DNA of 64,000 nt from Obrimoposthia wandeli (taxonomy: Eukaryota), in the NCBI GenBank assembly GCA_977020255.1, contig CDROCS010000564.1, forward strand, positions 1 to 64,000. Reading direction: 5' to 3'. Under the pieces are notes generated by a model. That model did no database searches. It was not told the DNA's origin and saw nothing but the letters and a program-made list of their open reading frames with translations. How positions within the stretch are numbered: position 1 is the first letter of the stretch; every line of letters starts with the position of its first letter. A program made the translations under genes and the position numbers. Positions 20,399 to 41,881 of the stretch are shown here, one piece after another.

Positions 20399-21332
20399 CA
20401 TAGATATAATAAACAAACCTAACTAATTTCACTTTTTAATTAACTCTTGCTCAGATATATGTCTATTCCATATAATCACATCTCTCTTATTTTCTGACAT
20501 ATGTTATGAAAGTTTCTATATGTACAAAATTGAATCTAAATTTCTATTGAACAAAATCGAATCATAAATATTTCCTGAACAAAATCGAATCTAAATTTCT
20601 CCATAAGATCCACGATGGGGATAAAATCAAAAAATCAAACTGCTCTACTGTCGCTGCATATATTTTTAATCGGCAACTGATAATATGAAATTGTGTTACG
20701 ATTAACAGTATTGTTAGGTTTAGGAATTGATAAAAATAAAATAATTAATCGAAATTATAGTGAAATAAGAATCCTTGAAAGCAAGGTTATAAATTAAATA
20801 AAATTGAATATTAGAATTAAATTATTAAAATTAAAAGGTAAATTGAATATTAAGGACCACGAAGGTCGTGTGTAGTGCGCTGTATGTATGGGAGGTTAAA
20901 TTATTATTAAGGGCCCCAAAAAAACAAGAATCAATTAAGGAAAACAAAAATCTAATTAAGAAGATTATTGCAAAAAGTTTATTAAGAAAAAGGACGAATA
21001 AGAAAATCAAATTAGTCGTACATTAGAAACCCATTAGCAGTCTGGGATCTACGACAACAGAAACCCATTAGCAGTCTGGGAGCTACGACAACAGAAACCC
21101 ATTAGCAGTGTCTGAGAGAGCACTTAACGGGATCGGGACCTCTGAACAGCAAGCAGCAAGTAGACTGCGGAATTGAGTCACGGAGGAACAAACAGGAAGT
21201 CCATTAGCGTCTGGACAGCGACTGTCTAGGAAACCGGAGGTAAAGTGGATTTGAGATTATCCATTATTTACTCTTGTAGAATCTCGGCAGCAAACAAAAA
21301 GCTTTTATAAAAGCGTGGCAATACACTACGGG

Positions 21333-21370
21333 TATAAATAAGACCCACGATAGGACCAGAGTTGTCAGTT
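21333..21370 (+). promoter_or_regulatory. Putative LTR core promoter: TATA box (TATAAATA 21333-21340) and initiator (TCAGTT 21365-21370)
   Basis: Consensus TATA about 30-34 nt upstream of a TCAGTT Inr, identical in the 3' LTR. The solo LTR has TATATAAG at 9529 in an equivalent position. Confidence 0.55.
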
Positions 21371-21535
21371 CTAACGAAAAGTGCAGCCAGATAATTCAGA
21401 GTTCTAACGAAAAGTGCAGCCAGATAATTCAGATTTTAACGAAAAGTGGAGCCAGATAATTCAGAGTTCTAACGAAAAGTGCAGCCAGATAATTCAGATT
21501 TCTAACGAAAAGTACAGCCAGATAATTCAGATTTC
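21371..21535 (+). repeat. 32-33 bp tandem repeat, 5 copies (6 copies in the 3' LTR, 44476-44672)
   Basis: Unit ctaacgaaaagtgcagccagataattcagag/ttt. A separate ~33-bp repeat (agaaacccattagcagtctggga.ctacgacaac, about 3 copies) lies at ~21026-21108. Confidence 0.9.
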
Positions 21536-21682
21536 ACAACATTCGGAATCGAAAAACGCCGTATTGACAAGTCAACCTACGGAAAACCGAGCAGCCCTCC
21601 GAACTGGAATCTGCCAACAACTGACATCCGAGGAAACATATCGAGGACGGATCAGCAGCACACGAGGCCAGCATACGTACTA

Positions 21683-21714
21683 TTGGTGAGAGTCAGAGGA
21701 AACTATTGGTAAAG
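21683..21714 (+). promoter_or_regulatory. Putative 5' splice donors in the LTR (TTG/GTGAGA at 21686, TTG/GTAAAG at 21709) immediately before the satellite
   Basis: Consensus GT-R-AG donors. The solo LTR has GAG/GTAAGG at 10011, right before its own repeat block. Confidence 0.45.
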
Positions 21715-24665
21715 TATTTTGAAAATATAAAAGTATTGATTGAAATAAAAGTCGTAAATATATTTTGAAAGTGTAAAAGCATTGATACATTGTGAAATAA
21801 AGTCGTAAAGTATTTTTGTATGTGTAAAAGCATTGATATATTGTGAAATAAAAGTCGTAAAGTATTTTGAAAATATAAAAGTATTGATTGAAATAAAAGT
21901 CGTAAAGTATTTTTGAAAATGTAAAAGCATTGATATATTGTGAAATAAAGTCGTAAAGTATTTTTGAAAGTGTAAAAGCATTGACATATTGTGAAATAAA
22001 AGTCGAAAAGTATTTTGAAGATATAAAAGTATTGATTGAAATAAAAGTCGTAAAGTATTTTGAAGATATAAAAGTACTGATTTAAATAAAAGTCGTAAAG
22101 TATTTTGAAAATATAAAAGTATTGATTGAAATAAAAGTCGTAAAGTATTTTGAAAATATAAAAGCATTGATACATTGTGAAATAAAGTCGTAAAGTATTT
22201 TTGAAAGTGTAAAAGCATTGATATATTGTAAAATAAAAGTCGTAAAGTATTTTGAAAATATAAAAGCATTGATACATTGTGAAATAAAGTCGTAAAGTAT
22301 TTTTGAAAGTGTAAAAGCATTGATATATTGTGAAATAAAAGTCGTAAAGTATTTTGAAAATATAAAAGTATTGATTGAAATAAAAGTCGTAAAGTATTTT
22401 GAAGATATAAAAGCATTGATACATTGTGAAATAAAGTCGTAAAGTATTTTTGAAAGTGTAAAAGCATTGATATATTGTGAAATAAAAGTCGTAAAGTATT
22501 TTGAAGATATAAAAGTATTGATTGAAATAAAAGTAGTAAAGTATTTTGAAGATATAAAAGTATTGATTGAAATAAAAGTCGTAAAGTATTTTGTAAGATA
22601 TAAAATCATTGATATATTGTGAAATAAAAGTCGTAAAGTATTTTGAAGTTATAAAAGTATTGATTGAAATAAAAGTAGTAAAGTATTTTAAAGATATAAA
22701 AGCATTGATATATTGTGAAATAAAGTCGTAAAGTATTTTTGAAAGTGTAAAAGCATTGATATATTGTGAAATAAAGTCGTAAAGTATTTTTGAATGTGTA
22801 AAAGCATTGATATATTGTGAAATAAAAGTGGTAAAGTATTTTGAAGATATAAAAGTATTGATTGAAATAAAAGTCGTAAAGTATTTTGAAGATATAAAAG
22901 CATTGATACATTGTGAAATAAAGTCGTAAAGTATTTTTGAAAGTGTAAAAGCATTGATATATTGTGAAATAAAAGTCGTAAAGTATTTTGAAGATATAAA
23001 AGTATTGATTGAAATAAAAGTCGTAAAGTATTTTGAAGATATAAAAGTATTGATTGAAATAAAAGTCGTAAAGTATTTTGAAGGTATAAAAGTATTAATA
23101 TATTGTGAAATAAAGTCGTAAAGTATTTTTGAATGTGTAAAAGCATTGATATATTGTGAAATAAAAGTCGTAAAGTATTTTGAAAATATAAAAGTATTGA
23201 TTGAAATAAAAGTCGTAAAGTATTTTTGAAAATGTAAAAGCATTGATATATTGTGAAATAAAGTCGTAAAGTATTTTTGAAAGTGTAAAAGCATTGACAT
23301 ATTGTGAAATAAAAGTCGAAAAGTATTTTGAAGATATAAAAGTATTGATTGAAATAAAAGTCGTAAAGTATTTTGAAGATATAAAAGTACTGATTTAAAT
23401 AAAAGTCGTAAAGTATTTTGAAGGTATAAAAGTATTAATATATTGTGAAATAAAGTCGTAAAGTAATTTTGAAAGTGTAAAAGCATTGATATATTGTGAA
23501 ATAAAAGTCGTAAAGTATTTTGAAAATATAAAAGCATTGATACATTGTGAAATAAAGTCGTAAAGTATTTTTGAAAGTGTAAAAGCATTGATATATTGTG
23601 AAATAAAAGTCGTAAAGTATTTTGAAAATATAAAAGTATTGATTGAAATAAAAGTCGTAAAGTATTTTGAAAATATAAAAGCATTGATACATTGTGAAAT
23701 AAAGTCGTAAAGTATTTTTGAAAGTGTAAAAGCATTGATATATTGTGAAATAAAAGTCGTAAAGTATTTTGAAAATATAAAAGTATTGATTGAAATAAAA
23801 GTCGTAAAGTATTTTGAAGATATAAAAGCATTGATACATTGTGAAATAAAGTCGTAAAGTATTTTTGAAAGTGTAAAAGCATTGATATATTGTGAAATAA
23901 AAGTCGTAAAGTATTTTGAAGATATAAAAGTATTGATTGAAATAAAAGTAGTAAAGTATTTTGAAGATATAAAAGTATTGATTGAAATAAAAGTCGTAAA
24001 GTATTTTGTAAGATATAAAATCATTGATATATTGTGAAATAAAAGTCGTAAAGTATTTTGAAGTTATAAAAGTATTGATTGAAATAAAAGTAGTAAAGTA
24101 TTTTAAAGATATAAAAGCATTGATACATTGTGAAATAAAGTCGTAAAGTATTTTTGAAAGTGTAAAAGCATTGATATATTGTGAAATAAAGTCGTAAAGT
24201 ATTTTTGAAAGTGTAAAAGCATTGATATATTGTGAAATAAAAGTGGTAAAGTATTTTGAAGATATAAAAGTATTGATTGAAATAAAAGTCGTAAAGTATT
24301 TTGAAGATATAAAAGCATTGATACATTGTGAAATAAAGTCGTAAAGTATTTTTGAAAGTGTAAAAGCATTGATATATTGTGAAATAAAAGTGGTAAAGTA
24401 TTTTGAAGATATAAAAGTATTGATTGAAATAAAAGTCGTAAAGTATTTTGAAGATATAAAAGCATTGATACATTGTGAAATAAAGTCGTAAAGTATTTTT
24501 GAAAGTGTAAAAGCATTGATATATTGTGAAATAAAAGTCGTAAAGTATTTTGAAGATATAAAAGTATTGATTGAAATAAAAGTCGTAAAGTATTTTGAAG
24601 GTATAAAAGTATTAATATATTGTGAAATAAAGTCGTAAAGTAATTTTGAAGGTATAAAAGCATTG
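21700..24665 (+). repeat. ~3.0-kb satellite of 44-52 bp units inside the 5' LTR (only ~0.75 kb in the 3' LTR, 44835-45570)
   Basis: Units aaagtcgtaaagtattttgaa..tataaaagtattgattgaaat and aaagtcgtaaagtatttttgaaagtgtaaaagcattgatatattgtgaaat. Rare variants recur at ~1.3-1.4 kb spacing, indicating a higher-order duplication. Confidence 0.97.
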
Positions 24666-25365
24666 ATTACAACTGAATTTATTGATTAAAGTAATTGAAA
24701 CGAATTAAAATTATTGATTAAAGTAATTGAAACGAATTGAAATTATTGATTAAAGTAATTGAAATGAATTGAATTTATTGAAAGAAAGTAATTTGGAAGA
24801 AAACTAAATTTTCATATATTGACTAAAGGACATTTGAAGTAAAGTATATAATTTTGAAATTTGAAATAAATTACGATTTGGGAGTTTAAATAAAATACAA
24901 TTTAACCTATACATTTAACCGTGTCACATTAGAGTAAAGACTCTAAGAATCACCCAACCCTAACCTTAAAATCGATACGTGGTTCATCCCCACTTGTGTA
25001 GAGACTTACAGAAGTCTTAGGAATTTTACTACAACTTTTTAGAAAATACGTACGTAAACGTATTGTTTTGTTTTAGTCTAGTGTGTTAACAATAAACGAT
25101 TTCCTACATTAGAAAGCATTGTTCTAGACCCTTCAGATTAAGAGACATCGAAAAACAAACACCTTCAGATAAGCATTGAGATAGGCAACTATAACATTAA
25201 GTAGGCCACAACCATCGTTAAGTCCTGCTTCTATAAGAACTCACGTTGAGGCCCTCCGCATTCAAGAGGATCTATAAGTTTCATATAGAAACCCCAACAT
25301 ATTAAATTGATACGCCCGAGTGAGGATAGCTCGTCGGACACAGCGACTTCACATAGAATAATAGA

Positions 25366-25550: not shown

Positions 25551-25997
25551 GTAAATTGAGATAAGTAAACTGATAAGTTTTGAGAAATCGAGTAGATTTG
25601 TTCCTCGAATTAAGTAAATTTGATAAGTTTTGAGAATCGAGTGGATTGTTCCTCGAGGTAATTAATTGAATAGGTTAAGTCGAGAGACATGTCCTCGAAC
25701 TAATTAAATTGATATAAGAAATCTTAAAATAAGAATTATGAAATAAGATAAAGTAATAAGTAAATTGATATCGTAAACGAATACATAATTGATAAGACAA
25801 CGAATAATAAAAACGGACCCGCGTTTAATACTAGAAGACAAAGTCAGATTCCCCAGGAAGAGATAAATAATAATAAATTTAACCGAATTGAGCAGGTTCC
25901 CCAAACAGATAACAAAGTAATAGAAGAGACTAGAATCGAAGAAAACGTATCAGAAAGAGACGTTGATCAATCAGCAGTTTCAACCGACAGTTTTAAT

Positions 25998-28067
25998 TTG
26001 ACTGAATTATTTGGTGACATAAACCCAGAAGAATTTGAAATTGCCAATCCAGTAGCGGTTGAGGAAATTCAAGGGATTAATATTGAAGAAATAGTTGAGG
26101 AGGATATAGCTGAAAATATGGCTCACGCAGGAGCTCCAGCAGATAATAATGCAGGAAATAATGTAGGTGACATGAATGCAGAACAATTGGCACTAGCCTT
26201 AAATGCGACGTTGAGACCCAACTTTTCGGGATCATTGCAGATTACAAAGTTTAAAGGAGATGAGGAAAGTATTTGTGACTTCCTCGCAGAATATTCGAGT
26301 TGTGCAGATGTTCAAGGATGGAACGATAGAGAAAAATGTGTCCGTGTACAGGCACATTTAACCAGATTAGCACTTGAAGTGTATAAACATTTGACAGAAG
26401 CAGAACGTTTAGATTGGGCAACGTTGGAAAATGCTTTTATTGGAAAATTGGTATTGGGAGATTTAGCAAAAGTGAATAAGCGAATCATGAGAGAACGGAA
26501 ACAGAAACATGACGAAGGCGTGAATGAATACGCGTATGTTTTGAGAACCTTAGCCGCAAGAGCGTACCCAAGAAGAATAATGAAAAATCAGGACGGTAAC
26601 CCTGTAGCTCCAGAAGCACAAGTAGCGGAAAATGACCGGAACCAAAATGAAATGGCAGAAGTTTTGTTAGACATATTTAGAGGAGGACTGAAAAAAGACA
26701 TTAAAGTGTTATTAGCAGTATCAGACACGAATGATTTTGATAACGCCATACGAAAGGCGAGAGAGATTGAGAAAAATATAAAATATAACGCAGCAATGGC
26801 AATTTATGCAATGACCACAGGTGATGACGATAAGACAAAAGTATTCGTGAATAAAACAGAACCGAGTAATTTTCAGAATCGAAATTATGGACAAAATAAG
26901 TTTGAAAAAGTAGATGAATCCAGTAACGGAAACAGAGATAATTTCCGAAATAGGAATCGAGATGATTCGAGAGGTAGAAATAATAGTGAGTCTTGGAACA
27001 GGAATCGAGATGATTCAAGAGATAGAAATAGTAATGATTCGTGGAATAGAAATAGAGATGATTCCAGAAATAGATTTAGTAGAGATAATTCAGGAAATCG
27101 CCAACCTTGGAGAGGGGACGATAGGAATTACAACGCAAACAGAGGAGAGCGAAATGACTCTCGATTTGGAAATAATGCAGGAAATAGTGATGGAAGATTC
27201 AATAATCGAGGAAGCGGTTTTGAATCGAATTTCCGAAGAAATGATTTTAGAGGACGCTATGACAATAGACAGAATAGTCGTCGAGTACAGTTCGAAGATG
27301 AACAAAATAAGATAGATATTCGAGGGAGAATAATGTGTTACACGTGTAAACAAATGGGTCACTATTCGAGAGATTGTACGAGAAGTAAAGAGTTCGGAAC
27401 TAACAGATTTGGAAATAATAATTTCAGTAATAATAATTTTGGAAATAATTATAGAGGATATAATTCACCCCCGCCATGGAATAGAGGTGGTGGATATACT
27501 CCGCAGCAATGGAGACCGAATAATCAGTATACAGATAGACAACAGTCACCAGGTAGATACAATAACTATGCAGACAGACAGCAAGGAGCTGAGATATACA
27601 ATAATTACGTAGGACAGCAAGGAGCTGAGAGATATAATAATTCCGGTAGATATAATAATAATAATGTTAACAAGACAAATAGTCGTGAGAGTTCGCCGAA
27701 ACCGAAAGGAAATTTTAGTTACGTAAACGATGACAGCGATAGGAATCGCGAGACCGAGCTTCGACGCGAAATAGATTTTGAAGATAGTGATAGTAAATTT
27801 GAACGAATGTTGGGAATAATTAAAGATTCCCCACACACAAAGATGGCGAATTCATCTACGTTGTTGAAACACGAAAAAGGTCTACACTCGAGAGAAGAGA
27901 TGAATGATTTAATGAACCGAATACTAGAAGCGTATGAGACACCAATAGAAAAAACGTGTAACGCACAACCTATGACTGATCACATAGAAGCAGCAAGAAA
28001 TGCTACGAGTAGGGAAAATGTGAAAAAGATAATTAGTGAAGCTAAGGAGACGTTGAATCAACCGTAA
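25998..28067 (+). CDS. gag: Gag (retrotransposon capsid domain, R/N/D-rich disordered region, CCHC zinc knuckle)
   Basis: Capsid-type segment FKGDEESICDFL..Y...GWNDREK..RERKQKHDEGVNEYAYVLRTLA..IFRGGL and knuckle CYTCKQMGHYSRDC. First ATG at 26118, but the frame is open from 25764. The frame continues ~60 codons past the TAA at 28065. Confidence 0.93.
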   Translation: MTELFGDINPEEFEIANPVAVEEIQGINIEEIVEEDIAENMAHAGAPADNNAGNNVGDMNAEQLALALNATLRPNFSGSLQITKFKGDEESICDFLAEYSSCADVQGWNDREKCVRVQAHLTRLALEVYKHLTEAERLDWATLENAFIGKLVLGDLAKVNKRIMRERKQKHDEGVNEYAYVLRTLAARAYPRRIMKNQDGNPVAPEAQVAENDRNQNEMAEVLLDIFRGGLKKDIKVLLAVSDTNDFDNAIRKAREIEKNIKYNAAMAIYAMTTGDDDKTKVFVNKTEPSNFQNRNYGQNKFEKVDESSNGNRDNFRNRNRDDSRGRNNSESWNRNRDDSRDRNSNDSWNRNRDDSRNRFSRDNSGNRQPWRGDDRNYNANRGERNDSRFGNNAGNSDGRFNNRGSGFESNFRRNDFRGRYDNRQNSRRVQFEDEQNKIDIRGRIMCYTCKQMGHYSRDCTRSKEFGTNRFGNNNFSNNNFGNNYRGYNSPPPWNRGGGYTPQQWRPNNQYTDRQQSPGRYNNYADRQQGAEIYNNYVGQQGAERYNNSGRYNNNNVNKTNSRESSPKPKGNFSYVNDDSDRNRETELRREIDFEDSDSKFERMLGIIKDSPHTKMANSSTLLKHEKGLHSREEMNDLMNRILEAYETPIEKTCNAQPMTDHIEAARNATSRENVKKIISEAKETLNQP

Positions 28068-28243
28068 GATGAAACGAGTGAAGCTCCAGAAGTTTTGGCC
28101 AAATTGCAAACAATTAAAGTGCACAGATTGGAAGAAGTGCGAGCAGAATTGGTTAAACATAGTCATGATAACTTGGGTTACAAAGAAGTATCACGAGGAT
28201 TATTGAAAGTCTTTACGTGCAGAGATCAAACCAAAAAGGAACA

Positions 28244-28466
28244 ATGAAAATTTCTCTTCGATTAATTTCCGGACAGATAATACATGAAAAACTTAACGTG
28301 TATCAAACAATGAAAACTATTCGAAAAAAGTTGGCCGAGAAACTTGAAATTGATGGAATGAATATGTTGTTCCATTATAAAGGAAGATCACTAGATGATG
28401 AAGACGTACCAGTCGAGTGTGGATATCCGATAGGAAACGAATTAGAGGAAAAAATTGATGTCATCA
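28244..28466 (+). CDS. Ubiquitin/SUMO-like (beta-grasp) domain within the polyprotein (ORF 28217-29950)
   Basis: MKISLRLISGQIIHEKLNVYQTMKTIRKKLAEKLEIDGMNMLFHYKGRSLDDEDVPVECGY..IDVI; the LFHYKGRSLDDEDVP.E.G segment resembles SUMO [20 protein letters not shown]. An AT-hook RRGPGRPRK follows at 28973-28999. Confidence 0.6.
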
Positions 28467-29149
28467 CTGTAGGACGTCAGGAGTTAGTAGAAAATGAAGG
28501 ATTAACTGAGATATTAAACTCGGCGTTAGAAATGATAAAAACGCCTATAGAAATTTTAGACAGTTCAAGCGAAAGCGGAGATAATGATGTAGCTGAAGCT
28601 TGGAACAAGACATCCACACCAGAACCGTACGTAGCTGAATTACAAGACGTGGAACTAGAAAATGAGTTGATGACTCCGGTGGTCGAAGTACCACCAGAAC
28701 CAGAGATAATTCAAACCGGACAAGATGAAGTCACGGATATAGCCAACCAAGTGAGACAAAACGAAAACGTAACCCAACTAGTAGAAGACGAAATCTCCGA
28801 GATTGTAGATTTGGATTCACCAATTTGGCATGCTGCATACAGAGATAGACAAGCAGAGCAGATGATGCGACAAAACGAAGAGATTGGCCATGAAGAAGGA
28901 CCAAGTCAAGAGATACAGTATAATGGTGAACCGTATGATCCAGGAGAGAATCAAACTGAGTATCAGTATTTTCGAAGAGGACCTGGAAGACCTAGAAAGG
29001 ATGGAAGTATATTACGAAATGTTCTAACTGCACCACAAACTGATGAGGAGAGACATCTAAGCATTGGACAGCTAGCAGCGTCATTGGAGCAGTATAGTAC
29101 GGAGCGAAATGAAGATATCAGAGGTGATATGAATTCGGAAGCTCCAAGT

Positions 29150-29542
29150 AGTAAAGATATACTTACGGGAATTCTCAGGCAAGTGAAGCCGAAGTTGTTC
29201 AAAATGTACAAAGATGAAACAACCGATATAACAGACAATTTGACCAAAGCAGTTAGATCACAAATGTCTGCAGTAAAGAGAATGACTGCGAATCATGTAT
29301 ACCATGCATCAATAGATAGATTTTATGACGGTGAAGTTTTAGCGAGATTATGTGGAAACCAGACTACAAATAAAAAGTTAATTACAGCGATCACATATCT
29401 ATGTTTCCAATTGACGGAACGAACGAGCCAACCTCACGAAGTCAAACAAGGAATAAATGAAGCGATGTATTTGATCGAGAATATATTGCAGAGACGAATT
29501 GACGAAAACGGAGGTTGGGCAAAATTAAGTGACTACGCTAAA
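29150..29542 (+). CDS. Bcl-2-like domain within the polyprotein
   Basis: BH2-like ILQRRIDENGGWAKL (cf. Bcl-2 LHTWIQDNGGWDAF), with a degenerate BH1 (LARLCGNQTTNKKLITAITY) about 47 residues upstream. Bcl-2 spacing is about 49. Confidence 0.6.
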
Positions 29543-29644
29543 ACCATTGTGGAAATGAACGAAGACGATGACGAACAATGTCATGAGAATCGTCAAAGAG
29601 AAAATAAACAATACCGTCCGAAAGAAAGAAACAATCAACCAAAT

Positions 29645-31157
29645 ATGTCCACAACGATGATGATGATGATGTTAGTAATGTTCATAGGAATGCAACAGGC
29701 ATCAGGGTTGATAGCATACGACTGTAGCATACCAAAGATGGGACAAAAGTATTCACTGCTTGACAGCGAAGACTGTCCAGAATCACAACCGTCAAAATTA
29801 GAAGTTAAAGGTATTGAAAACTACTTTGTGTATCAGGATGTTGATAAAATACAAGTAGAAGTGAAAGAATGTTCAGTCCATTCAAGTTATCACGAATTCT
29901 ATTATGGCCATAGACGTTTTATGTCGGAAATCACACCTACCACACCATAACGAAACAAGACCAATTCCTATGACGCCGACACCTACACTGTTGATGGCAA
30001 CATAAACAGAAGAAGGATTGATATTCATTAAAAAGAGAAATAAAGCGCGATGCGGAATGACTGTTAGTACTACAAACTATCCTGGAATAGTTTTGTCCAG
30101 AGAATTAATAGCATTGGCAGAAACCAAGCTAAAACCTAGAGATATGCAGCTACACACGTATTTTAATAATAAAATTGATTTTTATTATCATAAAGGATTG
30201 ATGCAAATGGAACAGTTATATTGGATGATGATCGAGAGAGATTGCCAGCTAAACAAAGAGATCGTAAGAACAAAGTTAGCATTAGCTATTACGACTCCAG
30301 ACATGATAGCACCATTATTACCCTTGGATGAAGGAGTATTTGCTAAAACCATGGGAGAAGTATTGTATACTTACAAGTATAATAAAGTAGAAGTACAGTT
30401 GAGAACAACAAATCGATGTACGAGTGAATTGGCAGTAACGCATAATTTAAAAGAACTCTTTGTTGAACCAATCACGAGAATGATACTTCCAAAAGACACT
30501 CCAACTAAAGAAATCAGCTGCTCTAATATAATGGCACCTGAATATCAGATGACGAATGATCTATGGATAACGTTACCTGACCGAAAGCCAACGAAAACTC
30601 CAGAGATGATAAAAATGACGAATCTTAAAGGAAAAATGAAATTCGAAGCGGTAGAAAATATGGAGAACGCAGGTTTGTACAATGAAAAAGACTTAAAAGC
30701 GGCCTGGAACGAAATAATGTTTCCAGTAAAAAGGGCCAGAGTACTTACGGAGATGGTACATCGAGCATTACCGCCAGGAGCTAGATATGCGAATTTTGAT
30801 ATGTTGTTATATCCAAGTCATTTCAAGGAAGCAGCACATCAGACACTTAGAAAGATGTGGGGGAAATTCCTTGTTTTAGGACAATTATTTTCGGGTATCA
30901 TAGGTATTTATGTTATAATTAAATTTGTGCAGGTAATTATAGCCCAGGTGTTGTCTACGTATAGTTTATACAGGATAACCGGAATCACCTGGCAACTTAT
31001 AATTGGATGTTTTCCATTTTTAGCAAAATATCTAATGCACCATCATCACGAGAACGAGTTGCGAGCCCTCAAGAAGGAGCAACATCAAACGAGAACCATG
31101 ATGCGAGACCCAAGAAACTATCGAGACGACAACGACGACGATAATGATAGCCCATGA
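29645..31157 (+). pseudogene. env: Envelope glycoprotein of the chuvirus (Jingchuvirales) G type, internally deleted and split across two ORFs (..29950 and 30018-31157)
   Basis: Signal peptide, then LIAYDC...SLLDSEDC...V.VKEC; C-terminal half CGMTVSTTNYP..YFNNKIDF..DCQLNKEI..TKLALA..PD..A..L..GVFA..MGEVLY..VEVQLR.TNRC.SEL.V..LFVEPITR..C..P.Y..AGLYNEKDL..IMFP..WGKFL.LG..FSGIIGIYVII. This is the conserved motif series of chuviral-type G proteins. The Cys-rich middle part is missing. Confidence 0.85.
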
Positions 31158-31394
31158 GAATATGCAAAGATACCAGGAAAACCAAAGATTCCGTTACCAG
31201 ACAAGGAAGAAGTGGCGCTAAACCTATATCCAATGAAGGAACTAAAGGAAGAGAAGGAAAAATTCAAGATAGGCATTTTAATGATAAGATGGCCTAAGAT
31301 AAACTACAGTGAGATTCCACAAGCAGAGGAAAAAGACAAAAAAGATAATTCCAGAAGAATTCTGAAGTCTAGGATATCCAATGAGAATCCAAAT

Positions 31395-31691
31395 GCTCCA
31401 CCACAAGTAGCAGTAACACTGAACGGAAGAGAATATCTTGCCGAAGTTGATACTGGATCTGCAGTATCAGTACTGAGTAAAGAAATCTTGTCATCAAAAG
31501 AATTAAAGGAAGTATGTCCTAGAAAACAGACATTTGTTAACGTGAATGGTACAGATGTAGTATCAGAAGGAACACTGAAATGTTCGTTAAATATCGATGG
31601 AAGAGCATTACAGTTAAATGCTAGAATATTCACAGATTGTGGTAGCCCAGTCATGATTGGGATGGACGTAATAAGGATGTTTGAAGGAATA
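31395..31691 (+). CDS. Retropepsin aspartic protease 1 (ORF 31212-32642)
   Basis: VTLNGREYLAEVDTGSAVSVL...VNVNG...VMIGMDVI; DTG at 31449. Confidence 0.9.
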
Positions 31692-31928
31692 ATTATATTA
31701 CCAAACAACAAGAGTTATAAGAACGACAGTTCAGTGAGAGAGATAAAAATGTTGAGAGGACCTATAGTCGAAAAGGAAAAATACACTATGTTCCGTATGG
31801 GAAATCCGTACCAAGATAAGAAACAGGAAGCGCTAGTAAAGTCGATACTTCACTACAAAGATGTAAACTCCGGACCACAAGCTATGACGAGGAGGAAAAT
31901 AACATATGTGAATCTGTCAGAAAAGGAT

Positions 31929-32949
31929 CCCATGAGATTCGAGAAAAATAGACGAAGATCACTAGAACCGTACTATTCAAAAGAAATGGCACGTAAAATG
32001 GCAAGATCAGGTTTAGAAATGTTAAACGCGACAAGTAGTTATGGTCATGAGGAAGTAGTACGATGCGTATGGTGTAGAGTAAAGTTTAGAAAGTGGGAAA
32101 AGAATGAAAACCCAATGAAACGTCATAAAAGAGATGCACCAAATTGTCCATTTCTTTTGAAACTGAAAACTTCAAACGTACCAGAAATCCAAATGGGAAA
32201 AGCACCCGATTTCGATAACAGTGACGAGATTCCAGAAGGAGAATCAGCTCTAATAGTAGGCAGAGTGATAACAAATAGCCGAATTGAAGACATATTCGAA
32301 GTTATGCGAGAAGTGAACGAATGTGACGAACAATATCGAGAAGTAACTTTCGAAGATCCAAGACTTAAAAAATTGGCAAAAAAGGGACTTTTTGCTATAA
32401 AAAAGGATGGTAAAGACGTAATTAAATGCCACAAGTGTAAAAAAGAACGAATTATCGACAGATATACTCTTGAGTTACCTAAGAAAACGTTACATCATGA
32501 ATTTTGCGAATTTTGTATTTTTAAAAACAAAATAAAGCAAAAAGAACAGAAAACCGAATGTATAATCGAATACCAAATCACACGGAAAGAGATTTTGGCT
32601 CAACAAGACAGTAGTGTCATTCGTGAGAAGACTATATCCTAAAGAAGCAGAAAGAATCAGAGATTTGGTAGAATTAAAAATAAAAACTACGCGAAACGGA
32701 TACGGATCAATTTTTGAATTATTGAGAGATAAAGATGACAGTACAATTGAAACAAAAGAGAAAGAGTACATAAACGAACTAGAATACGTACTGGAAGATC
32801 CGGAATGCGCAGTTAGCATGGTCAACAAAATAGAAGTTGCCTTTTTACCATGCGGACATGTAAGAACATGTCGGAGATGTGCGAAGGAAATGGTATCATG
32901 TCCGATTTGTAGAAAGATAATAGATCGACAAGTGAGAAATATTAGATTT
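31929..32949 (+). CDS. Inhibitor-of-apoptosis (IAP) module: BIR1, degenerate BIR2, UBA-like and RING, split by one frameshift (~32566-32640)
   Basis: BIR1 EKNRRRS..MARSG..VRCVWC..KWEKNENPMKRHKRDAPNCPF; BIR2 REVTF..LAKKGLF..DVIKCHKC..H..CEFC; UBA-like LNKTVV..IRDLVELKIKTTRNGY (cf. cIAP MNTPVV..VKQTVQSKILTTGENY); IAP-type RING CAVS..VAFLPCGHVRTCRRCAKEMVSCPICRKII, with the second Cys mutated to Ser. Confidence 0.9.
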
Positions 32950-33033
32950 CACTATCCAAACAAAGGAAGTGGACAGACAGAGTTTAATAATTCGATAAAT
33001 ACAATATACCATATGGGAAATATAAATGGAGCA

Positions 33034-33327
33034 CAGCGACCAGCAGCTATCATTAGAGTAAATAATTTAAGAGTAAAAGCCTTAATTGATACAGGTGCTG
33101 TAGCTTCGATAGTAAGTGAAGACTGTTTGACAGAAGAACAGAAACGAACAATGGCAGAACCAGATGAATTCTTGGTATCGGTCAATGGAGACCCTGTAAA
33201 AGTGACGGGAATATTACCATGTACATTTATAATTGGACGTAATACGATCACTATACCAGTTAGAATCACGAAAGAATGTCCTGAACCTACAATTTTAGGA
33301 ATGGATGTACTATCACAACTCAAAGGG
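33034..33327 (+). CDS. Retropepsin aspartic protease 2 (ORF 32614-34689)
   Basis: IRVNNLRVKALIDTGAVASIV...VSVNG...TILGMDVL; DTG at 33088. Followed by the usual Gypsy IPVRLMN...RGMRLG spacer. Confidence 0.92.
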
Positions 33328-33720: not shown

Positions 33721-34689
33721 AGACTGACAACCAGAGAAAAGAAACAATTACTCGATCTAATACATAAATTTCCAAAAGTAATTGCAAAAAATCCATATGA
33801 CATAGGAGAAACACCTGTCATAAAACACACAATACCACTGACAGAAGACAAAGTAGTCAGAAGAAGACCATATCGAGTACCATTACAGTTACAAGACGAA
33901 GTCAAAAGCCATATCGAAGATATGTCTAAAACAGGAGTAATTAGACCGAGTTTTTCACCATTCTCAGCACCTGTGGTGTTGGTAAAAAAGAAGGATGGGA
34001 AAATGAGATTTTGTATAGATTTCAGAGAACTGAACAAGATCACAAGAAAAGATGTGTATCCATTACCTAGAATCGAAGAGATGCTCGATAAATTGGGTAA
34101 TTCAGATTATTTTACGACATTAAATTTGCAGAGTGGATACTGGCAAATCAAGATAGAGGAAGAGGACAAACACAAAACAGCCTTTTCCTGCGGAGATGGA
34201 CTGTACGAATGCGAAAAAATGCCATTCGGACTGACAGGAGCTCCAGCAACATTTCAGCGTTGCATGAATTTTGTACTCGCATCGTGTGCAAACACGATGG
34301 TTTATATCGATGACATAATAATATTTTCTAAAACGTTCGAAGAACATTTAAAAAATCTTGAAGTTGTATTTAAAAGACTGGAAAACGCTAAATTAAAAGT
34401 TAAACCTACAAAATGCGAATGGGCTAAAGAGCGAGTAACATTTTTAGGACATATAGTATCGAAAGAAGGCATCCGACCTGATCCAGCAAAGATCGAGAAA
34501 GTAAAAGCGCATTTAGCGCCAAAGACTGTTAAGGAAATACAGAGTTTTTTAGGTCTTGCGAATTATTATAGACGATTTGTTGAACATTTTTCAGATATAG
34601 CAACACCATTGAGAAAGTTGACGAGGAAAGATGAGAAGTTCATATGGGGAAAGGAAGCACAACAAGCGTTCGAACATTTAAAAGACTGA
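33721..34689 (+). CDS. pol: Reverse transcriptase (first catalytic Asp mutated to Asn)
   Basis: PYRVP..SPFSAPVVLVKKKDGKMRFCIDFRELN..YPLPRI..TLNLQSGYWQ (normally TLDL; AAT at 34123)..MPFGLTGAPATFQR..YIDD (34303-34314). Confidence 0.97.
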   Translation, partial: RLTTREKKQLLDLIHKFPKVIAKNPYDIGETPVIKHTIPLTEDKVVRRRPYRVPLQLQDEVKSHIEDMSKTGVIRPSFSPFSAPVVLVKKKDGKMRFCIDFRELNKITRKDVYPLPRIEEMLDKLGNSDYFTTLNLQSGYWQIKIEEEDKHKTAFSCGDGLYECEKMPFGLTGAPATFQRCMNFVLASCANTMVYIDDIIIFSKTFEEHLKNLEVVFKRLENAKLKVKPTKCEWAKERVTFLGHIVSKEGIRPDPAKIEKVKAHLAPKTVKEIQSFLGLANYYRRFVEHFSDIATPLRKLTRKDEKFIWGKEAQQAFEHLKD

Positions 34690-35177
34690 TAAAAGCACCA
34701 ATATTAGCGTTTCCAGATATAAACCGACAATTCATACTCATGACAGATGCAAGTAACTATGCTGTAGGAGCAGTATTGGGACAAGAGGATGACGAAGGAA
34801 GAGAACACGTCATCGCGTATGCGAGTAGAGGATTAAACAGAGCTGAAAGAGGATACTCTGTTATTGAAAAGGAATGTCTAGCCATAGTGTATTCATGTAG
34901 ACAGTACAGACACTACTTGCTAGGACAAAAAGTATTCCTGTATACAGATCACAAACCACTACAGTTCTTATATAAACACAGAGACGAGATGAGTAGATTA
35001 AATAGATGGTTTCTAAAATTGGCCGAGTTCGATCTAGAAATCCATTATAGAACCGCAAAGTCGAATGGCAACGCAGATTGTTTGTCGAGGTTGACAAATG
35101 TAGACGAGAAAGGAAACATAATTCCAGAAGAAGAACAAGATGAAACCAATGACCAAGAAGGAGAAGAAATCTACTAA
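34686..35177 (+). CDS. RNase H (frameshifted relative to RT)
   Basis: APILAFPD..TDASNYAVGAVLGQ..IAYASR..YSVIEKECLAIV..TDHKPL..NADCLSR. Confidence 0.95.
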   Translation: MIKAPILAFPDINRQFILMTDASNYAVGAVLGQEDDEGREHVIAYASRGLNRAERGYSVIEKECLAIVYSCRQYRHYLLGQKVFLYTDHKPLQFLYKHRDEMSRLNRWFLKLAEFDLEIHYRTAKSNGNADCLSRLTNVDEKGNIIPEEEQDETNDQEGEEIY

Positions 35178-35182
35178 CGATT

Positions 35183-36430
35183 TTGCTGAAGACGGGTAAA
35201 ATAGACAAAGAGATCATCAAAGAACAGAAAGAAGATGAAGAACTGAGTCTAATCAAAGAACTGTTGGTAAAAGGAGATCTAAACGATGAAATGACGAAAA
35301 AATACTCGATAAAAGAAGGAATCTTGTATATTGTCAACAATGTCGGAAAGATAGTAGTAGTAATTCCGAAGTCATTGAAAACAGCAGTGATGATCCAGTA
35401 TCACGATGGAACACTAGGAGGACATCTGTCAGGACGAAAGACAATAGCCAGAATCAAAGAGAAATACCATTGGGATGGTATGGAAGACGACATAAAACAA
35501 TGGTGTAAACAATGTAAAGTATGTTTAACCAGAAAAGACACTGGAACTCGTACTAAAGTTCCACTGAAACCAATGCCAGTTCCTTTGGCACCAATGGAAT
35601 TCACAGCGATGGATATATTGGGACCATTGAGAGAATCAAGTAAAGGAAACAAGTACGTCATAGTATTTACGGACTACATGACGAGATGGGTAGAAGCATA
35701 TCCCATGAAAAACCAGAAGGCTGAAACAATAGCGCAGATCTTAGTGGAAGAGATAATATTTCGATACGGAGTGCTTAGAAAGTTGTTAACGGATCAAGGT
35801 AAGAACTTCACCGGAGAAGTAATAAAAGCAGTATCGAAGATATTCGGAATCATGAAGTTACAAACTTCACCATATCACCCACAAACCGATGGTCTAGTAG
35901 AAAGGTTTAATAAAACTTTATGTATGATGGTACAATCCTATTGCTCAGACAATCAAGAGGATTGGGATAAATATTTACCTTCATGTTTATATGCTTACAG
36001 GAATTCAGTTCGAGAGGCGACGGGTCACACACCATTATATCTGATGTATCTCAGACAGAACAATATGCCAATGGATCTGGAGTGGACCGAACCAACATCT
36101 CAATACTTAGAAACTGAACAATACATCGTCGTTATGAAAGAAAGACTACAAGATGCTTGGACCAAAGCCGGATTGAAGTTGAAATTCAATCAAGAAGGTT
36201 ACAAGGAACAATAGGACAATAAAGCAAAACCACATGAATTTAGAGTCGGAGATCAAGTGATGATATTTTATCCAGTCATCGAACCAGGTCTATCGTTTAA
36301 ACTTCATAGACCATACAAAGGACCATACAAGGTGATACAGACAACCTCAACAAATTTGAAAGTAATCAACGAGGAGAACCGGAACAAAGAACCAATGATT
36401 GTACATGCAAATCGATGTAAATTAGTACCA
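35183..36430 (+). CDS. Integrase (HHCC, DDE, GPY/F); premature TAG at 36212, continues in frame into ORF 36257-37021
   Basis: HDGTLGGH..CKQCKVC; DILGP..TDQG..DGLVERFNKTL; EQ*DNKAKPHEFRVGDQV..KLHRPYKGPYKV. Confidence 0.95.
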
Positions 36431-36539: not shown

Positions 36540-37960
36540 TGACAAGTGGTAGCGAGGAAAAACCAGCGAGAATTGGCATGCTCAGAATGAAGCACCAAGA
36601 GGAAAAAGAAGTAATTCGACACATCGCACCACAAGAGATATTGGAAGAAGACGAAGAGATCATAGTTGTTTTCGAAAGAACACAACCAACAGACGTGGCG
36701 AAAGAAGTCATTGTGAAAGATGCACTGATAAACGAATTTCTGTGCGAACTTAGAGTGTCATACTACGACGGAAATACACTAGTCGCAGAACTACATCAAA
36801 ACTCCAATGTGTTTACGACTGAGAAAGTGATAATCAAAATCACATTGACACCAAACATAGTTGCATGGCAGAACTATGACAGTACTGAAGCAGGACTAGC
36901 CAGTCAGGAAGAAAAAGAACTGGCCGGTGGTCATATACTTCATGGTACACCAAAAAGACTCAAACAAGAATACCACGATGTGATAATGGTATTACGTAAT
37001 TCACATGGAGAGTTCATTTAATTGACGCTGACACTGAAAAGATAATCTGTCAGATGGACACCAAATACTTTGACGGAAAGACAATTATATGTAGTATACC
37101 GGAATTCCACCAATTAAACACAGATCAAACGGAAGTATCTGTAAGGTTGAGCGTAATAGAAGGATTTCATTCGCCAACCCAACCGGAAGTAACAAACAAT
37201 AAAATCATTAAAGCAACGGCAGAGTTACGCATTGACAGCGGATACCGGAAGTGGGAAGCTAAAAATAAACCACAAAGAATCAATATGATCCGGGAACAAG
37301 TGACAACCTCAATCCAACCAAAATATCATGCTGAAATAGTATCATCCGCGCCAAGTGTGATTACATCGATAAACGACGAAATTATAATTTTACTAAAAAA
37401 TCGATGGCCGTCATCAACCGAGATACGAGTCAATTTAATTAATTATGCGAAAACACTGATATCTAAGCTGAATGTCACCTATTTCGATGGATTGTCCATC
37501 ATGGGTAAATTGGAAACAATTGTCATGTGCTATGGAGAGATACTTAAGGATAGTGTAATACCGTATCCAATTCACAGATACGCAGGACCAGTCTATCCAA
37601 TTATTCTAACCCCTTCATTAATTTCAGTTCAGACAGACATACCAGAATACCCTTCGAGCGAGTCTAGTCAAGACAGCGAACCTGAAAGTAGCGATCCAGA
37701 ATCAACAGAATCCGAAGATAACATAATAGAACGATTCGGAAGAACCATGGAGGTTGAATTCGCTAAAGAGAGTAGAAAAAGACGAAACATAGAATTTGTG
37801 AAACAAAATATACAAGAAAGACGAATTAAATCTGCAGAAGAGACCGAGTCGGACGAGGAACCAACAAAGAAACAGACATCAGAGACAAAGATGAATATCT
37901 CTCCAGCAAGGAAAGAAACTGGCGAAATTATCTATCATCGACGAACAAATAGAGAAGAGA
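36540..37960 (+). CDS. Unassigned post-integrase polyprotein region (two frameshifted ORFs), with a possible IPT/TIG-like segment at 36932-37165
   Basis: Long open frames with a -1 join near 37015. ILHGTP..VIMVLRN..IICSIPEF..VSVRLSVIEG resembles NFAT IPT LFVEIPEY..VKVNFYVING. Acidic stretch and a KRR motif follow. Confidence 0.45.
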
Positions 37961-38368
37961 TTAGAAAGACTAAAACTTGAAGAGTCAGAATTAATGCCAC
38001 CAATGAGTGAGATCATTCCAGGTAAGTTATACCTCGGAAATGTGGAAGATGCAACAGACGAAAAGAAACTGTTGGAACAAGGGATAACATACGTGATCAA
38101 CGTTACAATGAATCACAAATCACAATATCAGACGATCAGAGCTATGACATTAAGAGTAAAAAAGAGATTAGAAAGACTAAAATTTGAAGAGTCAGAATTA
38201 ATGCCACCAATGAGTGAGATCATTCCAGGTAAGTTATACCTCGGAAATGTGGAAGATGCAACAGACGAAAAGAAACTGTTGGAACAAGGGATAACATACG
38301 TGATCAACGTTACAATGAATCACAAATAACAATATCAGACGATCAGAGCTATGACATTAAGAGTAAAA
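37955..38368 (+). repeat. 207-bp in-frame tandem duplication of the phosphatase N-terminus
   Basis: ATGCCACC at 37994 and 38201; the second copy has TCA>TAA at 38327. Confidence 0.95.
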
Positions 38369-38625
38369 GACTCAATGGAAGCTAATCTTCTCGAATGGTT
38401 CGTAGAAACAAACGAGATACTTCACAGAGAACTCCAAAACCAAGGAAAAGTGTTGGTACATTGTCAGAAAGGAATCTCCCAATCAGCAACCCTAGTATTA
38501 GCGTATCTAATAAAGACTAGACGAATGCAGGTACTAGAAGCACTGAAATACCTACAGGAAAGAAGAAGTATTGCGAACCCAAACCTTAATTTTTTGGGGC
38601 AATTGTCAAATTACCAACTCCTGTT
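38210..38625 (+). CDS. Dual-specificity (MAP kinase-type) phosphatase domain, P-loop Arg replaced by Gln
   Basis: MSEIIPGKLYLGN..GITYVINVT..GKVLVHCQKGISQSATLVLAYL..AL..LQERRSIANPNLNFLGQL. The consensus is HCxxGxSRS; CAA at 38480. Confidence 0.92.
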
Positions 38626-38728
38626 GCAAGAACAGAGACGGATGGACGACATCCCTGAGGATCCAAAGGAAAAGAATTTCCTCCAAGCACTATCGTTGAC
38701 CGGTTTATTCTTAGCCGGAGTCGACAAA

Positions 38729-39147
38729 ATTACTCAGATAATGCCGAAAGTATTTTTATGTCATCCAGGAGATATAGATACCGCTGGATTAAAGTTCAAC
38801 AGTATCAACCGAGTAATTAACATTGTTGAAGTCGAAAATGAGATAATCAGTCTGTGTCAAAATACTGAAGATGACACAACTCGATACATACATGCTTCCA
38901 ATCGGGAGATAAACGATGCACAACAACACCTGATGAAGTTGACTCAAACCATCCAAGCCGAAGTTACAGAAGGAAACGGCGTTCTGATATATCAGAAAAA
39001 AGGTACAATGTTAGCTCCTACCATAGGTGTATCCTTGTTGGTAGAGTACCATGGTCATACACCAGAAGAAGCGATGGTTTATATCAAACAGAATAGACCA
39101 GATACGGAATTCAAACCGTTACTCGTTCGAGAAATAGAGAAATACTC
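38729..39147 (+). CDS. Second, catalytically dead DUSP-like domain
   Basis: ITQIMPKVFL..INRVINI..GNGVLIYQKKGTMLAPTIGVSLLVEYHG.TPEEAM.YIKQNRP keeps the DUSP layout but lacks HC...R. Confidence 0.65.
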
Positions 39148-39199
39148 CGAAAAGAGGAAGCAACAACGAGAAACAAATGAAGCTACAACAACAGAGCCC

Positions 39200-41881
39200 A
39201 GCTATCAATACCAAAGATTGCTAGCACTAGGCTTGTTAAGTTGTCTAATGCCTATAACGGGAGCACAAGAGATAGGCTCCAACCACGGAAATAGTTCATG
39301 GTTCAAAGAAATCAACAACTACATCATACAGTACAATACACCGGCACTGATGATGCTATTAGTGTTGATAGGACTAATTGATGTATGGTTTATCCGAAAA
39401 TGTATCCGATCTATGAGAACCGATAGTAAAATATTTCAGTTTGTGAAAATGAAGAGACCAAATGAACCAACGAACCAAGTACTTGTGTATCTAGACGAAA
39501 GGATTGAGGATAACATAGTGAATGAAGCGATATTTTATCCACAAAACAGATTACTGAATCAATTCCGAATGGACTACGAAGCTGACCGACAGCGCACACT
39601 TGACCGAATATCAGCAACGTTCGCCGGATGCAAGCGAAGAAGGCGAATTGTGAGGGAAATACAAAAAGATGCGGATACAAAAGGTCCGACGTATATATTC
39701 GACGGCGATGTCATCAAAACACGTGAGTATGGAAGTAAGAGAGTGATAATTGAAACGATGGAAGGACATAAAATATGCTTGTCCGCCAAAAATGGATTCG
39801 GAAAGTTGATGATACAAGGTAAACAGGTACAGTTGATTATCGGAAAAACTGGAATCAAAGAAATGTCAAAGCAACGACAGACAACCAAACGACCTAACCA
39901 GAAACAGATGTCTCTCAAACGAATGATAATCAAAATCCTTTGCAAAAGGACAATCAAGGCCCTGTGCACTGTTGCACAAGGATTGATCTACGGAGTAGTA
40001 ATTGGATTGGTACTACAAGCCATTCCAACCAGTAAAGCTGAATTGATGACGCTACCTGGATATAATTTACATTTGAGAAATCTAGACAACACCCTAGAAA
40101 TAATCAATACGTCTCAAAGTAAAGCCGTAATGGTCATGTGTGTGAAAGGATGTCCAGGACGAATGTGTATAGTCCCAGCGACCGAAATGAAAACACTTAA
40201 TGGACATTATGGAGTTAGTGTTGTCACATGTGAAGATTACACATTTGGACAAACTAAAATAGTACTTCTCAGTGACATGTCCAATCAAAGTGTACATAAA
40301 TTTAAAATATTAACCATCAAGAGTAAAGGGATACCAGCAATACGTTATGGTATTCTAGAATTGGTTAATCCAATACTGGCATTGATCATTGGATTTATAA
40401 TATTAATATTACTCATCTTGTTTTGTTGTACAAAGATAGAGTTGAGATCAAAAAAGAAACGTCATGATCTCGCAAGACAAGCAGGTCAAATGAATTTACA
40501 AAAATTCAACACAAGTATACCAAGACCAGCATTCCTAAATGAACCAGCACGAGAGTACCAGCCAACGATATATGAACATATCGAGGAAAGACCGTACTAT
40601 ATGAGTAACTTGAGTTATTCCAGAGAAGTTCCTGAGATTCGGAATCGGACGATCATCGGAATCATGCTGATCATGCAAATCACCACGACCGAGGCTGGTT
40701 ATGAGATCATGATCAGTAAATGGAGACAAGATACGATACGGGCGTTATCCATAAAAATACCTCTAATAAAAACAAATTACGTAATATACATTCACCTACA
40801 AACATCAGCAACCGAAAATGTCGATCAGAAATTGTATGTCATTCGCCAGATCAAAATAAAGATTGACCAACATAAACTTTATTACCGACTGATATTATTC
40901 TACCATGAAAAGGTATTATACCTACGAATAACAATATCAAAAATGAAACGGATTATTCAATTTATCCAAACAAAGTCATTAATATTACCTAACGACGAGC
41001 GCATCTGGAAAGTTGTCGACAGGATTATGATCACAGGTAGACGACGTAAAACCGTATGGAATTCCGTTAGATTATTCTTCAGATTGTTAGAAACTGACAA
41101 AGTAACAGTGTCGTGTCCCAATCCAGATAGTGGAATCAGATTCGAAATTCAAAACCAAATGTTAGTACCACATTTTGATACAGAACGTCTATGTAACCGA
41201 ATTCCCAGCAATGCTAGAGAGACCTCTACCAAAATCATGGTAATAACAGGTGAAATATTCTACATAACTCTAAGATACCAGACACGTCGATTTCGTGGAC
41301 TCGGTATAAGTATCAAACCAAGGAAAATCATTCCTGGAAAACCAATCATAGTCATAAAAAAGGAAAAGGTGAAAGGAAGTAAACGCCATTCCGAGAAGCC
41401 AAAAGTAATCATAACAAAGACAGAGGTGAAAGGAAAAGAGTTCGAGCCCAGAAATCAAAGCACAATTATTGAGAAGACAAGAGTGAAGGGAACGATTCCA
41501 CTAGATCCCAAATATCATCTCAAATCCCAAATAATAATACCTGTTAGACCAAAAACAAAATATCCAAATCTGCGAGTTATTAGAAAATCGGACATAATAC
41601 ATGGAAACCGATCAACACCAATGGAAACGTCATTCAAACCGACAAACAACAAAATGAAGTATGATTATCAATCATCAGACAGCGGAATAACAGCGGTCAA
41701 TGCTCTAATTGGAATGGCAGTAGTGTCAACAGCAGTGGTTCTATTGACAGTCGTGTGCGTGAAAGGCAGTCAAGTATGCCCAAGAATACGACGAAAATGC
41801 GAAGGACTGCGATGCTGTAACACACCCACAATGGAGGAAGTGGAATTGCGACCCTTACCTCCGCCTCCCATCAAGACATGA
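39200..41881 (+). CDS. C-terminal polyprotein region encoding several putative type-I membrane proteins separated by internal signal peptides
   Basis: Alternating signal-like segments (39215-39265 ending ITGA/Q, 39962-40039 ending SKA/E, 40646-40696 ending TEA/G) and TM segments (39341-39394, 40364-40426, 41684-41761). Ends RPLPPPPIKT*. Confidence 0.6.
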   Translation, partial: SYQYQRLLALGLLSCLMPITGAQEIGSNHGNSSWFKEINNYIIQYNTPALMMLLVLIGLIDVWFIRKCIRSMRTDSKIFQFVKMKRPNEPTNQVLVYLDERIEDNIVNEAIFYPQNRLLNQFRMDYEADRQRTLDRISATFAGCKRRRRIVREIQKDADTKGPTYIFDGDVIKTREYGSKRVIIETMEGHKICLSAKNGFGKLMIQGKQVQLIIGKTGIKEMSKQRQTTKRPNQKQMSLKRMIIKILCKRTIKALCTVAQGLIYGVVIGLVLQAIPTSKAELMTLPGYNLHLRNLDNTLEIINTSQSKAVMVMCVKGCPGRMCIVPATEMKTLNGHYGVSVVTCEDYTFGQTKIVLLSDMSNQSVHKFKILTIKSKGIPAIRYGILELVNPILALIIGFIILILLILFCCTKIELRSKKKRHDLARQAGQMNLQKFNTSIPRPAFLNEPAREYQPTIYEHIEERPYYMSNLSYSREVPEIRNRTIIGIMLIMQITTTEAGYEIMISKWRQDTIRALSIKIPLIKTNYVIYIHLQTSATENVDQKLYVIRQIKIKIDQHKLYYRLILFYHEKVLYLRITISKMKRIIQFIQTKSLILPNDERIWKVVDRIMITGRRRKTVWNSVRLFFRLLETDKVTVSCPNPDSGIRFEIQNQMLVPHFDTERLCNRIPSNARETSTKIMVITGEIFYITLRYQTRRFRGLGISIKPRKIIPGKPIIVIKKEKVKGSKRHSEKPKVIITKTEVKGKEFEPRNQSTIIEKTRVKGTIPLDPKYHLKSQIIIPVRPKTKYPNLRVIRKSDIIHGNRSTPMETSFKPTNNKMKYDYQSSDSGITAVNALIGMAVVSTAVVLLTVVCVKGSQVCPRIRRKCEGLRCCNTPTMEEVELRPLPPPPIKT

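Follow-up and report, generated by a model that had tools for sequence, protein, structure and literature searches.

What is a chuvirus-type fusion glycoprotein doing between gag and pol of a Ty3/gypsy retrotransposon, and is it still of use to the element? The question is raised by the window analysed here (the whole 64,000-nucleotide stretch of DNA), in which a first-pass annotation had read such a glycoprotein and implied that the layout was new. This arrangement is already known, as the accessible text of two papers shows (PMC6431247, PMC13524379). Our analysis adds population evidence that env works, namely selection while the family amplified, and a pair of old ectodomain types that recombine on a young backbone.

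The element and its host

The glycoprotein lies within a giant LTR element (Table 1) that has the 4-bp target-site duplication GTAT outside both LTRs. The unique ends of the 5' and 3' LTRs are 99.4% and 99.0% identical. Both LTRs contain tandem arrays (21367-24780 and 44472-45600) with units of 32-33 bp and 45/51 bp, and the length of the array is unequal between the two (LTRs of 4,588 vs 2,278 bp). The primer-binding site is a 19-nt complement of the 3' end of the host tRNA-Met(CAT) in 11 of the 13 copies printed, and a 37-bp repeat follows it. Another locus (L154, C2252) carries a tandem array of tRNA-Met(CAT) motifs with at least 38 matches at ~284-bp spacing, and this tRNA fits the primer site of the element.

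The domain order PR-RT-RH-IN, a gypsy-type RNase H and an H2C2/GPY integrase place the element in Ty3/gypsy, and a Pfam profile search found no BEL/Pao DUF5641 or Peptidase_A17 match among its domains. The Gypsy host element and the gag-env-pol order in one frame, both read from the window earlier, are thus borne out by the domain order and by the shared open frame described below. The RT is 50-60% identical to the relatives compared. Judging from one gene, a mortalin encoded on another contig, the host is most likely a triclad flatworm: this mortalin groups with that of Dugesia japonica inside the flatworms (SH-aLRT 99) and is 85% identical to it. Outside the element, a short ORF (13924-14424) carries an H-x-x-x-G-H-G-G ... 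C-x-x-C motif. The motif presumably resembles the zinc finger of integrase/KRAB-A-type transposon proteins.

Table 1. Features of the element in window coordinates.
Feature	Position	Strand	Remarks
Whole Ty3/gypsy LTR element	20712-46094	+	~25 kb
5' LTR	20712-25299	+	4,588 bp; TG...CA ends; long internal satellite array
Primer-binding site	25308-25327	+	degenerate in the window copy
Gag part	25764-28067	+	CCHC knuckle 27336-27380; private stop 28065
Ubiquitin-like domain (weak)	28256-28423	+	Pfam PF00240, E 0.02, below cut-off
Bcl-2-like domain	29060-29560	+	Pfam Bcl-2, E 0.18; fold search
Putative internal signal peptide of env	29645-29707	+	Met-rich, hydrophobic; from position and homologues
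Env ectodomain, predicted class III (gB/chuvirus G-type)	29708-30860	+	type A, broken
Membrane anchor and following helix	30861-31040	+	anchor 30861-30972; the hydrophobic helix behind it is weaker and contains proline
Cytoplasmic tail/linker to protease 1	31041-31406	+	private TGA 31155
Aspartic protease 1	31407-31676	+	DTG at 31449, kept in 27/30 rows
IAP-like cassette	31980-32928	+	BIR 31980-32156; RING finger 32797-32928
Aspartic protease 2	33052-33318	+	DTG at 33088, kept in 22/24 rows
RT, RNase H, integrase (H2C2, rve, GPY)	33800-36421	+	Ty3/gypsy order
C-terminal part of the ORF	37950-41881	+	dual-specificity phosphatase domains, then three membrane units
3' LTR	43817-46094	+	2,278 bp; TG...CA ends

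The family encodes one polyprotein

Of the 39 best env matches outside the window, 30 were taken with 20 kb of surrounding sequence and aligned with the window to give 31 rows; these copies were picked by env likeness, which biases comparisons of diversity. The family ORF spans ~5,490 codons, from window position 25764 to the family stop at 41879. Across the 31 rows, a stop is never the commonest state in any codon column of this interval. Each in-ORF stop or frameshift is common to at most 3 of the 31 rows, and the sole frameshift found in three rows is a 4-base insertion. The ORF is not open over its full length in any of the 30 copies. Among seven further loci, natural frames stay open for 2,246 codons, covering gag and env and reaching into protease 1, and for 4,335 codons, starting at the Bcl-2-like domain and passing env, RT and integrase to the end. 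Since the breaks are private to copies and none is conserved, we conclude that the family encodes one ORF.

The window copy itself is dead. Its stops at 28065, 30003, 31155 and 36212 are present in 1/28, 1/31, 1/31 and 1/23 rows, and it has private frameshifts near 28209, 32611, 34681, 35167, 37008 and 37909. Env had been described as in frame with protease 1 apart from the TGA at 31155. The TGA is indeed in frame with protease 1, and it is decay and not readthrough because the breaks are private. Programmed readthrough or frameshifting, at 31155 or elsewhere, was rejected for the same reason.

The polyprotein is ordered gag, ubiquitin-like, Bcl-2-like, env, protease, BIR, RING, protease, RT, RNase H, integrase, phosphatases and membrane units. 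The Bcl-2-like domain was modeled with low confidence (pLDDT 59); the 46 PDB matches listed are all of the Bcl-2 family (best E 2.4e-3), and it shares a GGW motif with four homologues. A PDB sequence search with this domain returned nothing. The ESM Atlas gave no match of at least 0.9 for it or for a C-terminal ectodomain. BIR and RING match at E 2.5e-14 and 1e-10 (Pfam), and a second BIR-like stretch can be seen by eye inside the cassette. The two proteases that flank this cassette (31407-33318) are ~30% identical to each other, and one relative (P0153) has six protease-like stretches.

Downstream, the phosphatase region of the window copy contains a 207-bp tandem duplication. The region 39218-41783 encodes three signal-peptide/ectodomain/TM-like units that match no family, and similar C-terminal units were seen by eye in the homologues P0008, P0016 and P0153. 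As predicted from sequence, these units are possible accessory envelope proteins. Three copies (L013-L014, L047-L048, L053-L054) lose their match at one point, near window position 32537, and this common breakpoint suggests an insertion or deletion lineage. Several other copies have long internal deletions in which RT is lost.

Env is predicted to adopt a class III fusion fold

The hydrophobic stretch, the LIAYDC...SLLD..DC series starting at 29708 and the TM anchor, all noted in the first-pass annotation, were confirmed at their positions. The hydrophobic stretch ends just before AYDC, as the N-terminal signal peptides of stand-alone homologues do, and it falls under the hydropathy cut-offs used. 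The profile search proposed as a check on the chuviral assignment matched PF24664 (Monjiviricetes_fusion) twice. The ORF 28172-29950 covers profile positions 3-94 (E 5e-9), and the 383-codon frame 30006-31157 covers 266-627 (E 1e-66, 226 bits, cut-off 27). A PDB sequence search with env gave no match under E 0.1.

The ectodomain of the window copy is incomplete, as had been suspected. A private 460-bp deletion at 29946-29950 shifts the frame and removes a large part of the fusion domain (about residues 80-233 of the mature protein), and a second private stop follows at 30003. The region is present in other copies: the deleted stretch is complete in 28 of the other 30 and partial in two. In 9 of 28 copies, env has no break between signal peptide and anchor.

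A natural unbroken ectodomain from another copy (525 residues, alignment of 112) was used as the model query. The model has a mean pLDDT of 89.9. Its PDB matches listed are all herpesvirus gB (best E 2.9e-13), with a Z of 11.6 over 417 aligned residues at rmsd 8.7 and 10-15% identity. Among viral models, chu-like glycoproteins match best (E 1.7e-35, ~20% identical). A long central helix (294-341) is predicted, the Foldseek and VIA-align matches are gB and chu-like G, and cysteines are nearly invariant across the 112 homologues. The predicted fold, which agrees with the class III expectation, supports the identification of env as a chuvirus-type class III fusion protein.

Env is an old acquisition

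A search for env homologues yielded 1,285 sequences, the best of which are long polyproteins with env ahead of protease and RT. An unrooted FastTree phylogeny without named viruses was built from 121 rows, comprising matches that cover at least 480 query residues after four near-duplicates were dropped. All 15 envs embedded in polyproteins group together (SH-like 100) against the 106 stand-alone proteins, and branches are about 1 change per site long. The DUF5641-linked (BEL/Pao) homologue P0023 lies far from this group. As the tree is unrooted and the stand-alone proteins are nearly all unnamed, the donor cannot be named. Among eight elements, env and RT identities correlate over 28 pairs (Spearman 0.77; the pairs are not independent), and the env and RT trees have both well-supported splits in common. 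This co-divergence indicates that env is old and vertically kept.

The first-pass annotation had proposed an independent capture, and only part of this idea survives. The separation from the BEL/Pao-linked homologue stands. That this Gypsy family took up a chuvirus glycoprotein recently is very improbable and, as "recent", largely refuted. Such an event could draw on the chu-like glycoproteins as best viral structural matches and on the position of P0023, but it fits poorly with a single group of 15 polyprotein envs on long branches, with the co-variation and common splits of env and RT, and with an identity to chu-like G of only ~20% in structural alignments. Relatives in Schmidtea, Macrostomum and Prostheceraeus, reported in the accessible text of PMC13524379, also argue against it. 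The alignments and trees thus identify env as an old acquisition, separate from the BEL/Pao-linked homologue. An old capture from a Monjiviricetes ancestor is possible; the transfer may have run from virus to element or the other way.

A second gag-env-pol family occurs in the same genome (L089-L094), with env ~41% and RT 60% identical to those of the window family. It has one protease directly after env and no match to the Bcl-2-like or BIR domains of the window. The homologue P0008 (HBK71150.1) is a Burro-like env-pol polyprotein filed under a Flavobacteriaceae MAG and is probably flatworm DNA in a bin.

Env was under purifying selection while the family amplified

Single-base variants were classed against the commonest codon of each column, and the expected N/S ratio was derived from the singleton spectrum. 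Singletons in the env ectodomain comprise 189 N, 92 S and 15 stops (omega 0.66), whereas variants found in at least three copies comprise 8 N, 26 S and 2 stops (omega 0.10; Fisher p 2e-6). Over the whole ORF, omega is 0.60 for singletons vs 0.13 for shared variants. By domain, the shared-variant omega is 0.05 in RT, 0.02 in integrase, 0.13 in the Bcl-2-like domain and 0.35 in the gag capsid region. The env value is of the same order as that of the Bcl-2-like domain and higher than those of RT and integrase. The low omega of shared variants means that env residues were constrained while the family amplified, and env was under purifying selection during this process. No earlier report of purifying selection on a Burro-type env was found in the literature searched.

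The constraint reflects folding or function and is no proof of infection. Part of it could stem from the need to fold and cross the membrane so that Pol gets made. Env might also be a membrane scaffold that ties Gag and Pol to the ER, with assembly inside the cell and spread of the element without leaving it. We regard this as a serious but rather unlikely alternative. In its favour, pol in a single ORF needs env to be translated and threaded correctly, env and the accessory domains are under selection of similar strength, and thousands of env-bearing places could be reached by ordinary retrotransposition in stem cells. Against a mere scaffold, the predicted class III fold is kept in full (525 residues, disulphides conserved) across families that are only 22-62% identical. 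Furthermore, the window deletion in domain I is private and has founded no amplified subfamily.

Two env types share one backbone

A search with a distant homologue gave 60 scored matches. Twelve of these loci were opened, of which three are of the window type (95-96% env identity), four are at 79-80% and five at ~41%. The ~80% class, type B (L071, L099-L118), has the same backbone as the window type, type A. A and B have a DNA identity of 0.69-0.86 across the initial ~1.2 kb of the ectodomain (window 29709-30445) and of 0.92-0.95 thereafter. In the flanks it is mostly 0.94-0.97, about equal to that among B copies (31 A rows, 20 B rows). The types are ~70% identical in domain I. Their fixed differences in residues 46-170 give a dS of 1.47 and a dN of 0.24, and there are none in the anchor. 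Omega between A and B is 0.15-0.22 at dS up to 1.5. The predicted fusion-loop tips, assigned from the model, are unlike between the two types. This restriction of divergence to the outward-facing ectodomain, with an unchanged anchor, also speaks against a purely intracellular scaffold.

First-look candidates number 1,980 for A, 946 for B and 2,677 for the shared upstream domain; these are not copy numbers, and A:B is roughly 2:1. Thirty loci picked by the B-linked upstream domain comprised 18 B, 10 A and two without env, with no third env type among them. Type B as a separate subfamily was rejected on the downstream flank (p-AU 2.4e-8), while a B clade on the upstream flank was not (p-AU 0.27). 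A recombining backbone that is ~95% identical carries both env types. We read this pattern as an old env variant that entered or survived by recombination, with recent amplification of both types. In the literature searched, env types inside a single Burro family are not described; figures, supplements, closed papers and Repbase may hold such a description.

Two diverged ectodomain types coexisting at high copy number might also be expected of resistance alleles, if expressed copies of Env block the entry of related elements or viruses. An antiviral role has been proposed for solo chuvirus-like glycoproteins in mosquitoes (PMC7642597, accessible text). We consider such interference improbable here, because env sits inside young multicopy elements with ~99% identical LTRs and selection is seen on variants common to several insertions. 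Selection on variants between insertions acts during transposition and not at one fixed host locus.

A model for Env in the polyprotein

Taking the predicted fold and the sequence evidence together, we think it probable, with ample room for doubt, that the high-copy Burro-type env is the envelope of putative particles that carry the element between planarian cells. The internal signal sequence would send the Env ectodomain into the ER. Since the hydrophobic stretch ends where stand-alone signal peptides end, it likely opens translocation, and signal peptidase would cut before LIAYDC. Gag-Ubl-Bcl-2 would retain the signal peptide as an anchor at its C terminus. Tail anchors are also used by Bcl-2 proteins. 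Hepatitis C core keeps the E1 signal in this way (PMC5402940, accessible text).

The TM at 30861-30972 would then stop transfer and leave both proteases, the IAP cassette, RT and integrase in the cytosol on the Env tail. Hydropathy (KD19) is 1.8-2.5 for this first helix and 1.0-1.6 for the second in 7/7 polyproteins scored, two polyproteins without the anchor motif being left out. One strong TM followed by a weaker helix points to a cytosolic Pol tied to the Env tail, and the signal-peptide-like units after integrase fit this placement. The topology would change if the second helix spans the membrane. Protease would later free the cytosolic Pol parts from the Env tail. Pol would thus reach the particle through Env and not as Gag-Pol. 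Survival of the producing cell would be the task of the Bcl-2-like, BIR/RING and phosphatase domains. Release of Env by signal peptidase and protease, and enveloped particles, had been proposed earlier, and we likewise infer both from the sequence. A single ORF implies a 1:1:1 ratio of Gag, Env and Pol; such a ratio is unusual in retrovirus-like particles and was counted against the envelope-particle reading.

More speculatively, the element may be a recently infectious planarian retrovirus with a flavivirus-like polyprotein. In this doubtful extension, signal peptidase would split Gag from Pol as translation proceeds, Pol would be packaged on the tail of the class III Env and not as Gag-Pol, additional type I membrane proteins would be cut C-terminally, and two Env "serotypes" that differ in their fusion-domain tips would be maintained and swapped on one backbone through receptor interference or host defence. 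If the proposed topology is true, Gag and Pol are separated before assembly, and Pol packaging would be unlike that of standard retroviruses. Planarians allow RNAi and imaging, which makes the topology testable. The results sharpen an open question from the eLife paper, namely how gB-type retrotransposon envelopes enter cells.

Comparison with known systems

Glycoproteins of the same predicted fold and Pfam family, the G of Jingchuvirales/Monjiviricetes and herpesvirus gB, are encoded by stand-alone genes with an N-terminal signal peptide, whereas the window env lies inside a retroelement polyprotein. Among LTR elements, Anakin carries a chuvirus glycoprotein of the same superfamily, PF24664, but is a BEL/Pao element of insects (PMC7642597, accessible text); the gypsy-type window element does not belong to it. 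In arthropods, no clear capture by Gypsy was found according to the accessible text of PMC10084718.

Closer are the gB-type GAG-ENV-POL Ty3/gypsy elements described in Platyhelminthes, Nematoda and Bryozoa (Chary and Hayashi, PMC13524379), including six in Schmidtea (Smed_errantivirus_1-6). In its accessible text, that paper likens the gB-type env to mosquito BEL/Pao (Anakin) and Chuviridae glycoproteins and argues for an ancient origin. The Smed elements likewise have a gB-type env ahead of pol and are multicopy in planarians. Eight domain I-II cysteines and flanking motifs of the Smed C1a rows align with the window env, by eye only. They differ in host and family, and that paper found no PBS for them, whereas the window family has a tRNA-Met site. 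Single-frame topology, selection among copies and within-family env types are absent from that text.

The nearest counterpart is Burro/GYPSM1 of Schmidtea mediterranea and Dugesia (Girardia) tigrina, for which an in-frame env between gag and pol with a mononegavirus-like glycoprotein has been published (Arkhipova and Yushenova 2019, PMC6431247). In Schmidtea, differentiated tissue transcribes BURRO1 once smedwi-2 has been knocked down (PMC8532177, accessible text). As far as the accessible text goes, Burro is likewise a giant LTR element of planarians with one ORF of ~5,000 aa, the order gag - Ubl - Bcl-2-like - env - PR - RT - RH - IN, and BIR and RING motifs. PMC6431247 links its env to gypsy/baculovirus F-like Env, whereas the predicted fold of the window env is class III and gB-like. 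The window family differs further in its longer ORF (~5,490 codons), in the IAP cassette between two proteases, and in the phosphatases and membrane units after integrase, with no MATH or ankyrin match. Set against Burro by description and by-eye rows, the element is, as judged from its predicted ORF, a new Burro-like family.
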